Below, piece after piece: positions 60,701 to 63,700 of a DNA stretch of 64,000 bases; position 1 is the stretch's first letter; the number at the start of each line of letters is the position of its first letter. Origin of the DNA: Escherichia coli (lineage in GTDB: Bacteria > Pseudomonadota > Gammaproteobacteria > Enterobacterales > Enterobacteriaceae). The stretch lies in the NCBI RefSeq assembly GCF_013315695.1, contig NZ_CP054353.1; one strand, given 5' to 3'. Position numbers: made by a program.

Positions 60701-63700
60701 TATTCTTTGCCCATGAGGTTATGTACAACATGCTCCAGGATAACCCTGTAGTGGAGCAAAGATATGACAATTTCAAATTCGAATTTATTGAAACCGTTTA
60801 TTCCTGGTACTGAGTTGCCACCTTTTAAAGAGGATGTTTTTTCTAAAACAGAAGAACAATTTAAAAAAAGCCCCCATGGCAAATTGCTTTTCATTTCCGG
60901 AAATGAAAACTTAGTAAACATTTCAGCGGAAAAAATCGATGAAATAAAAAATAGCAAAGATTTCTTTTCAAATATTGTAAATATAATAATTTTAATCATT
61001 AAGCATCCTGATAAAATTCTGCCCATTCTTCATGGTTGTCCTGCAGAGTCCATCGAACTCATTAAGAATGCGAAACGAACGGGGCAATGGTCATATGAGA
61101 TGACTGATAAGAACGGGCAGAATATTGAAGTGTCCTATATTTTCACTGATACCATAGATGATAAATCTGATGGAAAATTATGCTTAAAAATCTGTAACTC
61201 TTGCAACCAAAATGATTCTAGTACACATGAATATAAAATAGATCATCAACAGTTGAAAAATCACATAAGGCAACTTGAGGAGTGGGCCCTTCTTGAAAAG
61301 TTTTATGATAACAACGCTTATTATTCTAAACGTACAAAACAATTAGAGAAGAAAATTGCCGATGCGGGGTTTATAACAGGGAAGGTTAATGCCGATAACT
61401 TTAATGTAAAAGAGTTTAAAGACGATATAGCCTCGATGCTTTGTGAACAGCCCCCCATGCGTACACACCAGATTTCTTCATCCGGATACTTATCTGCCGA
61501 TAAAGTGCCTGATCTCTATAAGACAAATTTGAAAGACGCGCAGAGAGATCTGAAAACAACACCGGTTGACATCGATGGTGTTAGTCTAAAATCAAAAACT
61601 CGGGAAAAAATTGCGGAAAAAATTGCGAAAAAAACTGAGGAAAAAATTGCGAAACAAAATGCGAAGACCATTGAGGAGAAGAATAGTGAAAAAAACAAGA
61701 AAGAAACAAATCCTGAGGATAATTTTGTCTTAAAATTCTCACCGGACGAAATCAATGAGATGCTCCTGGATTACAGCGATGAAGAACAAAAAAAATTAAG
61801 ACCTTTTTTCACTAGTGATCACATCTATTGTTTGTTTGATGCTTTTAGTCAGGGTTTGCATAATGTTGCTCGTAATGGCAGTCCACGGTATGCAGGTTTA
61901 CTACATCAAATAGCATCCAACTCTGAGATATTACAAGATTTTGATCAACAATTGTTCTGGCGCACGTTTTCAGGAGGAGTCTTCCATCGACGTATCTCTG
62001 TGAACAGCGAGCCAGAAAAGACAGATGTATGGCGATTCAGTACACAATTTGATTTTCCACATATAAATGACAACGGGGAGTTGTCCAGAACGGTACTCAT
62101 GTTCGAGGGGGTTGCTGAAAGCAACTTTAAAGATATCGCCAATCATTCCAGCGAATGTTTTTCTTACAGTTGTTATGCCGCTCCGCTGGATGCGAATGCT
62201 AAAAAATAGTGACGCCGGAGCTTGAAGTTTCAGAGCGCCTTGCGTGACGCCTGCGCCATCATCCGCGGATAAAACTGCCAGAAGCGGGTTTCGAGGGCGG
62301 CATAATGTGCGTTTAAATCGTACCAGGAGTCACGCAGGGCATCCAGACGTGGGCGACGGCTTGCCATGCCGTTTAACACGTTCTGGATGAAATCCATATC
62401 GCGATAGCGCACCAGCCACTGCTCTGACCACAAGTAATTGTTCAGATTGATAAAACGTGGCGGTGAGTCCGGCAAAATCGTCATCACTTGCTCGCGGGCA
62501 TAACAGACAAATTCCTGTAGCGGAAAGTCCGGCGACAGCTGCGACCAGTGGCGGGAAAGAAAGTGATCCCACATGACATCCAGCGTAATAGGCGCAACGC
62601 GGCGCGTTTCACTACGAAACCATTCCCGTGCTTCGCGGACTTCCGGCAGATTGTCGGTTAGTACATCAATGCGCCGATGCATATGAATGCCAGCCACGAC
62701 GTCGGGCGGAAAACTTTCTTCAGGATTTCCGCGTACGAAATCAGCCAGTAAATTGCCGGAAAGCGAGCTTTCCGCGAGATGGGCTAAATGCAGGTGAGCT
62801 AAAAAATTCATCGATTATATTCTATCCAAAGGGGGGTAAAGGTTGCAGGGAGAGCGCCCCGGCACTAGACTACCCGCCTCTTATTTTAGTCTGAGTCAGT
62901 GTCATGCGCGTTACCGATTTCTCCTTTGAATTGCCCGAATCCCTGATTGCCCACTATCCCATGCCTGAACGCAGTAGCTGTCGTTTACTGTCGCTGGACG
63001 GGCCGACGGGCGCGCTGACGCACGGTACTTTCACCGATTTACTCGATAAGCTCAACCCCGGCGATCTTCTGGTTTTTAATAATACCCGTGTGATCCCGGC
63101 GCGCCTGTTTGGGCGTAAAGCCAGCGGCGGCAAGATTGAAGTGCTGGTTGAGCGTATGCTCGACGACAAACGCATTCTTGCGCATATTCGCGCCTCGAAA
63201 GCGACAAAACCTGGCGCAGAACTGTTGCTGGGCGATGACGAAAGTATTAACGCAACAATGACCGCGCGCCACGGCGCACTGTTTGAAGTCGAATTTAATG
63301 ATGATCGTTCGGTACTGGATATCCTCAACAGCATCGGCCATATGCCGCTGCCGCCGTATATCGACCGTCCGGACGAAGACGCTGACCGCGAACTTTATCA
63401 AACCGTTTATAGCGAAAAACCGGGCGCGGTTGCAGCCCCGACCGCTGGTCTGCATTTTGACGAACCTTTGCTGGAAAAATTACGCGCCAAAGGCGTGGAG
63501 ATGGCGTTTGTCACCCTGCACGTTGGTGCGGGCACCTTCCAGCCGGTGCGCGTCGACACCATTGAAGATCACATCATGCACTCAGAATACGCTGAAGTGC
63601 CGCAGGATGTGGTTGACGCAGTGCTGGCTGCGAAAGCGCGTGGAAATCGGGTGATTGCGGTTGGCACCACCTCTGTTCGCTCGCTTGAGAGCGCGGCCCA

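Follow-up and report, generated by a model that had tools for sequence, protein, structure and literature searches.

We consider it likely that a 12-bp tandem repeat found in the stretch of Escherichia coli DNA analysed here (64,000 nucleotides of contig NZ_CP054353.1, assembly GCF_013315695.1; hereafter the window) is an in-frame coding minisatellite (VNTR, 12-bp unit) lying in a tolerant, charged and probably helical interdomain spacer of an orphan protein. The units follow one another in tandem to a degree well beyond chance, their length is a multiple of three and they lie in frame, and isolates differ in copy number by whole units.

Results

Repeat array and reading frame

The initial annotation had described positions 61604-61663 as five consecutive, imperfect 12-bp units, GAAAAAATTGCG / GAAAAAATTGCG / AAAAAAACTGAG / GAAAAAATTGCG / AAACAAAATGCG, and this is how the sequence reads, with units 1, 2 and 4 identical. 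The units are therefore as first described, but the array is longer than the five that were given and in this strain extends over nine units to position 61711. Comparison of unit maps between alleles divides it into two parts:

61604-61663, plus strand: five well-preserved 12-bp units encoding EKIA EKIA KKTE EKIA KQNA, codons 281-300
61664-61711, plus strand: four degenerate 12-bp units encoding KTIE EKNS EKNK KETN, codons 301-316

Most unit gains and losses fall within the 61604-61663 part, and the 61664-61711 part has a constant length in all array-bearing alleles. The latter is the older, decayed end of a single array that it forms together with 61604-61663.

Tandem Repeats Finder reports a repeat at 61605-61665 with a period of 12, 5.1 copies, 81% matches and a score of 80, as well as a period-36 row at 61594-61695. 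Compared with itself at a lag of 12, the five-unit stretch matches at 39 of 48 bases. Dinucleotide shuffling of the whole ORF gave a mean of 22.0 at this lag (sd 1.7, maximum 29), and none of 2000 shuffles reached 39. When any lag from 3 to 30 was allowed the maximum in the ORF shuffles was 32 (0 of 300 reaching 39), and shuffling the local A-rich region 61540-61760 alone gave a maximum of 31 (0 of 2000).

Codon 281 of the annotated ORF at 60764-62209 begins at base 61604 (offset 840) and each unit comprises exactly four codons, which places the repeat inside the real coding frame. Translation of the five units with their flanking codons gives REKIAEKIAKKTEEKIAKQNAK. Small ORFs in other frames over the repeat (61611-61733 on the plus strand, 61516-61755 and 61581-61742 on the minus strand) were dropped as candidate genes because they are no longer than 79 aa and are by-products of the low-complexity repeat.

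The array might alternatively act as DNA, with phased A6T2 tracts every 12 bp forming a curved segment that nucleates H-NS-type silencing and whose copy number tunes the effect. Regularly spaced A-tracts are indeed present (61605-61612, 61617-61624, 61628-61634 and 61641-61648), and in a crude, home-made and unvalidated wedge model the array ranks as the second most curved 63-bp stretch of 50001-64000, with an end-to-end/contour ratio of 0.888 against a mean of 0.979 (sd 0.016). These tracts, however, follow automatically from the codons GAA-AAA-ATT, their 12-bp spacing is out of phase with the ~10.5-bp helical repeat, and there is an intact haplotype of the gene that has no array at all (see below). 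We regard a role at the DNA level as very improbable.

Copy-number variation between strains

A coding repeat of this kind had been expected to vary in length among homologues, and it does. Repeat number ranges from 6 to 12 units and changes in whole 12-bp steps within the array. Among the 120 best homologue clusters, whose arrays all resolve into 6-12 tetrapeptide units, protein lengths were 469 (4 clusters), 473 (2), 477 (2), 481 (54), 485 (7), 489 (46) and 493 aa (3). The same ladder is seen at the DNA level, where RefSeq CDS lengths of 1422, 1434, 1446, 1458 and 1470 bp differ solely by 12-bp blocks inside the array; all in-frame indels between array-bearing alleles are 12 bp or a multiple thereof and lie within it. 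In 60 genomes taken at even spacing from the 1036 that matched the region, 31 had the window length, 19 were longer by 12 bp and 7 by 24 bp, one was shorter by 12 bp and one by 24 bp, and one was partial.

The DNA unit maps place the missing or extra units at different positions of the array in different alleles. Strain AR_0013 carries the array of the window less one unit, strain Nord122 the same array less two units, and strain EcPNK004 has an extra GAAGAAAATGCG. A one-unit difference was even found between proteins that show no differences across 444 flanking residues. On the common 489-aa background there are three distinct one-unit losses, two of which make hybrid units (EKNS, from EKTA plus KKNS, and EETA), together with two distinct duplications, EKTA-EKTA and KKTA-KKTA. 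The window-type background shows a three-unit loss between identical copies of GAAAAAATTGCG, and further unit-change events are found on the O157-type and EVIE-type backgrounds, bringing the number of distinct events to at least about ten. Hybrid units are the product expected of misaligned pairing between adjoining repeats.

Copy-number variants on identical backgrounds are represented by only 1-4 contigs each, compared with up to 375 for the common alleles and 613 for the allele of the window. O157:H7 genomes in two evenly spaced samples had one array length throughout, and the mutation rate therefore appears to be low. Unit change, probably by slippage, is thus recurrent yet slow, and the array is a slowly mutating minisatellite rather than a hypermutable switch.

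The host gene and its insert

The ORF that contains the array is the sole gene on a 1.65-kb insert between the convergent genes malZ and acpH. The end of the window is E. coli chromosome, and its relevant features, taken from the ORF list, the RefSeq annotation of homologues, a junction comparison with K-12 and reading of the sequence, are:

57228-58604: proY
58760-60577: malZ
60578-62229: AT-rich insert of 1652 bp, from the malZ stop codon to the acpH stop codon
60610-60657, plus strand: compound hairpin (arms 60610-60620 and 60647-60657) just 3' of malZ
60678-60692: second terminator-like stem followed by a T run
60753-60756, plus strand: Shine-Dalgarno-like GGAG, 7 nt 5' of the ATG
60764-62209, plus strand: 481-codon ORF, an allele of ECs_0454
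62230-62811, minus strand: acpH
62904-63974: queA

Only 4 bp separate the stop codons of malZ and acpH in K-12, as against 1652 bp in the window, and the similarity to K-12 ends exactly at both stop codons. The GC content of the insert is 31-40%, against ~50-58% in the flanks. Of 5426 complete E. coli genomes 1127 carry it; it is chromosomal in all of these with a median of one copy, and its gene is labelled 'hypothetical protein' in every carrier. The insert occurs in O157:H7, O55:H7, O145 and ST38-type strains as well as in Shigella dysenteriae.

The spacer between malZ and the ORF is single-copy, with matches in 1127 genomes, a count equal to that of the whole insert. Folding of 60578-60705 as RNA gave a minimum free energy of -37.9 kcal/mol (z = -3.6), a stability reached by none of 200 shuffles, and the hairpin at 60610-60657 is probably the malZ terminator of insert-bearing strains. 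No RNA family was found in 60400-62400 by a search of Rfam at a permissive threshold.

An orphan protein

The initial annotation had called the ORF unrecognised. This holds in the sense that the gene has no known function, but RefSeq does annotate it: the ORF is the allele of ECs_0454 of O157:H7 strain Sakai, a hypothetical protein. Searches of Pfam, NCBIfam, PHROGs and PADLOC with the ORF protein gave no match at or near threshold, and PDB sequence searches, whether with the single protein or with a profile, gave no meaningful match. An exhaustive HMMER search of 1.84 billion representatives returned its own cluster, fragments of that cluster, one weak PKD-repeat match and nothing else. In this match residues 102-158 resemble three PKD repeats of a 947-aa protein; a PKD domain was rejected, as Pfam gave no PKD match even at E-values up to 1. 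An invariant CX3CX2C motif (C140, C144 and C147) was considered as a radical-SAM signature, and this was ruled out since there is no family match.

Scanning 100,044 species-representative genomes turned up no relative, and tblastn against phages gave no match. Against plasmids tblastn matched just two records of ~4.9 Mb each, which are evidently mislabelled E. coli chromosomes. The names attached to the homologues are E. coli, Escherichia sp., Shigella dysenteriae and 'Enterobacteriaceae'. By these sequence searches ECs_0454 is an orphan that is restricted to a subset of E. coli and Shigella. Our literature search, which included one supplementary table, found no paper on ECs_0454 or its repeat, and the array locus was not found in typing schemes or in papers on MLVA.

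Predicted conformation of the array

In the 38 distinct arrays compared, 93% of units begin with E or K; the second residue is mostly K, E, Q or R, the third I, N or T, and the fourth mostly A, E or N. In the window the encoded segment is 53% charged, with a net charge of +4 and a mean hydropathy of -1.9, and the first proline or glycine occurs only at residue 317. An AlphaFold model of residues 258-481, made from an alignment that included both haplotypes described below, draws a single helix at 277-305 (pLDDT ~68-77) followed by a low-confidence coil at 304-322. The mean pLDDT of this model is 50.9, and we used it solely for the array helix; a full-length model was unusable (mean pLDDT 34.7). 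AlphaFold is prone to rendering peptides rich in E and K as helical, and by its charge and hydropathy the array segment falls in the disordered region.

The repeat had been predicted to form a charged helical linker. This is plausible, as the segment is charged and a helix is predicted at 277-305, but the model is weak and the degenerate tail is low-confidence coil. With moderate confidence, we take the array to be a charged, probably helical spacer.

A heptad coiled coil was rejected, as the period is 4.0 residues when one near 3.5 would be expected; the hydrophobic moment is highest at 90 degrees (1.85), falling to 0.88 at 100 degrees. The segment does not have the character of an ER/K helix, for at 53% charged residues it contains 6 opposite-charge and 7 like-charge i/i+4 pairs.

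A Foldseek search of the PDB with the segment model gave no significant match. The top match was the type III secretion effector EspG (E = 0.55, TM 0.33, rmsd 18 Å, from a low-confidence model). Membership of the EspG/VirA type III effector family was rejected on the non-significance of this match and on a PDB-chain profile search that returned neither EspG nor VirA.

Integrity of the ORF

The ORF is free of stops for 481 codons, and the longest such run in 1000 shuffles of equal composition was 140 codons. RefSeq calls the CDS in all E. coli genomes that we fetched, four of which have it marked as a pseudogene, either frameshifted or partial. The disrupted copies seen comprise one deletion, in an O55:H7 strain, and 1-bp changes in three homopolymeric runs:

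60863-60869, plus strand: A7 run, one A longer in the frameshifted allele of strain ABW_A19
61689-61695, plus strand: A7 run inside unit 8, one A longer in the frameshifted allele of O145 strain RM9873-C1
61788-61795, plus strand: A8 run, one A shorter in the frameshifted allele of strain OkiPb01695

The frameshift in OkiPb01695 is possibly an assembly error because the same assembly has a frameshift annotated in malZ too, and some of the copies disrupted by 1-bp changes are probably errors of this kind.

A rare but intact haplotype of 461 aa occurs in 31 genomes. Its flanks are ~97% identical to the window but its central segment (~61540-61900) is highly divergent and non-repetitive, with 20 fewer residues. 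Since this haplotype is intact without the array, the array is dispensable for an open ORF. Both of the deeply diverged haplotypes are intact, at 461-493 aa.

Weak constraint on the protein sequence

Between 34 and 42% of array columns vary, compared with 11-18% of flank columns, and the entropy of the array is 0.33-0.50 against a mean of 0.17, which makes it the most variable part of the protein and its longest high-variability stretch. Variability is unevenly distributed and peaks at residues 13-24, 205-216, 277-312 and 385-396. Pairwise dN/dS of the ORF ranges from 0.2 to 1.7, the values of 1.4-1.7 being reached for O157-type versus other alleles. Segregating sites are spread over the three codon positions of the ORF as 15/12/19 and 8/8/13, compared with 3/2/29 in the neighbouring acpH. 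Amino-acid constraint on the ORF is thus weak. The intact alleles contain no nonsense substitutions; 4.2% of random changes would make a stop codon, and the probability of finding none in 75 neutral substitutions is ~0.04. This is more in keeping with a gene that is translated and subject to weak or diversifying selection than with a dead ORF, while falling short of proof of function.

We also weighed the view that the ORF is non-functional, a recently acquired or de novo frame that drifts neutrally, in which the repeat is a product of DNA slippage in A-rich sequence and has no meaning for a protein. The absence of homologues beyond part of E. coli and Shigella, the near-uniform polymorphism over codon positions with its high dN/dS, the frameshifted or deleted copies in some genomes and the AT-rich, foreign composition are all in line with this. 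Set against them are the length of the stop-free run at a GC content of only 31-40%, a good GGAG Shine-Dalgarno site, the intactness of two deeply diverged haplotypes and the lack of nonsense substitutions. In addition, the frameshifts all lie in A7 or A8 runs, at least one of them in an assembly with another frameshifted housekeeping gene, and may be sequencing errors. We therefore think it improbable that the ORF is without function. Its function could nevertheless be marginal, because the amino-acid constraint is very weak.

A further reading takes the variation of the array as an adaptation and not as something tolerated. ECs_0454 would then be an arms-race protein, perhaps an effector that is secreted or a factor that confronts phage, competitors or the host. 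The array would act as a ruler of adjustable length or as a variable surface, with diversifying selection on its copy number and substitutions. That the ORF stays open, with a low probability of escaping stop codons by chance, while its amino acids evolve near-neutrally or faster (dN/dS to 1.4-1.7, little third-position excess) would be expected on this reading. So would the patchy variability and the deeply diverged central haplotype alongside nearly identical flanks. The N-terminus is also rich in Ser, Thr, Asn and Pro, and the best, non-significant fold match is a type III effector. The resemblance to EspG is, however, no better than described above, and the array variants are rare relative to the common alleles, as would be seen for neutral or slightly deleterious mutations. 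Adaptive variation of the array is in our estimate doubtful. Its most explicit version is a long shot: a fast-evolving, lineage-restricted arms-race protein (an unrecognised secreted effector, surface or defence factor) in which the array is a rigid helical ruler between two domains, with the copy-number changes, the hypervariable patches and the array-less haplotype all kept by diversifying selection. If helical, each unit of such a ruler would add ~6 Å and 40 degrees.

Discussion

Our data favour a coding minisatellite in a tolerant spacer. We propose that misalignment of adjoining near-identical units at replication, or unequal exchange, would lead to the gain or loss of whole units, and that the resulting variants would survive because a unit of four codons keeps the frame. 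As a spacer, the tetrapeptide array would separate the N-terminal part of the protein (residues ~1-276) from the C-terminal part (~323-481), and its exact length and sequence may be of little importance. The preservation of the frame by 12-bp indels is automatic and is not in itself evidence of selection.

The array is one more coding tandem-repeat polymorphism of E. coli, of an ordinary kind and of modest importance, and the prediction made from the sequence alone proved right. About a fifth of E. coli carry the gene, and among these the array could be used as a lineage marker. Of greater interest than the repeat is the gene that contains it. This gene sits alone on an insert placed precisely between two core genes that converge, no relative of it could be detected in other species, and its frame stays open while the protein sequence drifts almost freely. 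Should diversifying selection lie behind this pattern of drift, it would be worthwhile to test whether ECs_0454 is a virulence or conflict factor that has gone unrecognised.

The array has features in common with contingency loci, in which repeat-mediated slippage is likewise the source of mutation, as it probably is here, and the A7 and A8 runs with 1-bp frameshifts in some assemblies add to the likeness. In contrast to such loci, a change of one 12-bp unit keeps the frame and there is no on/off switching, which the array cannot provide because its unit is four codons long. Nor was hypervariability within clones seen in the two evenly spaced samples of O157:H7.

Helical spacers include ER/K single alpha-helices and Ala/Lys/Glu-rich segments such as TolA domain II. 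No sequence similarity of the ORF protein to TolA or to another family was found. The array is similar to both in being a Glu/Lys-rich segment free of Pro and Gly that lies between protein parts, is predicted to form one helix and is tolerant of length changes. It differs from classical ER/K helices in its charge content of only 53%, in the regular I/T/N-A pair of each unit, and in having like-charge i/i+4 pairs as frequent as opposite-charge ones.

The closest comparison is with coding VNTRs, in-frame minisatellites of the kind used in MLVA typing of E. coli O157 and other bacteria. Unlike the 6-9-bp, high-copy loci that are used for outbreaks, the units of the array are imperfect (81% match), and the array appears stable within the O157:H7 samples and hence much less mutable. 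With coding VNTRs in general it shares head-to-tail units with a length that is a multiple of three, whole-unit polymorphism between isolates and a decayed end.

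Genomic setting and transcription

The convergent malZ and acpH genes enclose, exactly between their stop codons, an AT-rich insert of 1652 bp (window 60578-62229) that carries a single gene (60764-62209, + strand; an allele of the hypothetical protein ECs_0454); K-12 has 4 bp at this position. The insert occurs in around 21% of complete E. coli genomes, its carriers including O157:H7, O55:H7, O145 and ST38-type strains. We saw neither flanking direct repeats nor mobility genes at the insert. Two features lie between malZ and the ORF:

60610-60657, stable compound hairpin (fold of 60578-60705: MFE -37.9 kcal/mol, z = -3.6)
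60678-60692, small stem that resembles a terminator, with a T run

Their presence suggests that the ORF is transcribed independently of malZ. No sigma-70-like promoter turned up ahead of it in a simple scan.

Allelic variation and the repeat array

A second, intact haplotype of the ORF, encoding 461 aa, was found in 31 genomes:

L012 475-1860 and L013 475-1860 (fetched E. coli loci), also strain ABW_A19 (L008); equivalent to window ~61540-61900

Its flanks are around 97% identical, and its central segment is strongly diverged and lacks the repeat array (TRRHLADIIHVKCMREKNYTTDQGFELPEEVIHALLLDY...). This pairing of near-identical flanks with a diverged centre makes the gene a mosaic. Across the ORF alleles, residues 376-395 take at least six or seven different forms. 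Amino-acid variability is also high in three patches outside the array:

60800-60835, residues 13-24
61376-61411, residues 205-216
61916-61951, residues 385-396

At the array, A6T2 tracts recur every 12 bp (61597-61660) as a result of the codons GAA-AAA-ATT. Among 63-bp stretches of window 50001-64000, a crude home-made wedge model places this one second in curvature, with an end-to-end/contour ratio of 0.888 against a mean of 0.979. The curvature may be incidental.

Disrupted copies

Three copies annotated as 'frameshifted' each trace to a 1-bp indel in a homopolymer:

60863-60869, A7 run, strain ABW_A19
61689-61695, A7 run, strain RM9873-C1
61788-61795, A8 run, strain OkiPb01695

These indels could reflect real inactivation or homopolymer sequencing errors; in OkiPb01695 malZ is frameshifted too. 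In the O55:H7 strain USDA5905 (locus L009, 1094-2834) a deletion has removed most of the insert and fuses the truncated malZ 3' end to the last ~340 bp of the ORF, inactivating both genes.

Resemblance to known proteins

P0139, a metagenomic protein of 947 aa, has three PKD repeats, and residues 102-158 (61067-61237) weakly resemble every one of them (~31% identity over 58 aa; library-wide E 5.9e-7, boosted by the triple match). AlphaFold predicts beta strands in this stretch with low confidence. A CX3CX2C motif (C140, C144 and C147; codons 140-147, window 61181-61204) is unchanged across all aligned alleles. The protein bearing it matched neither the radical-SAM family nor any other; the motif itself has the same cysteine spacing as that of radical-SAM proteins.
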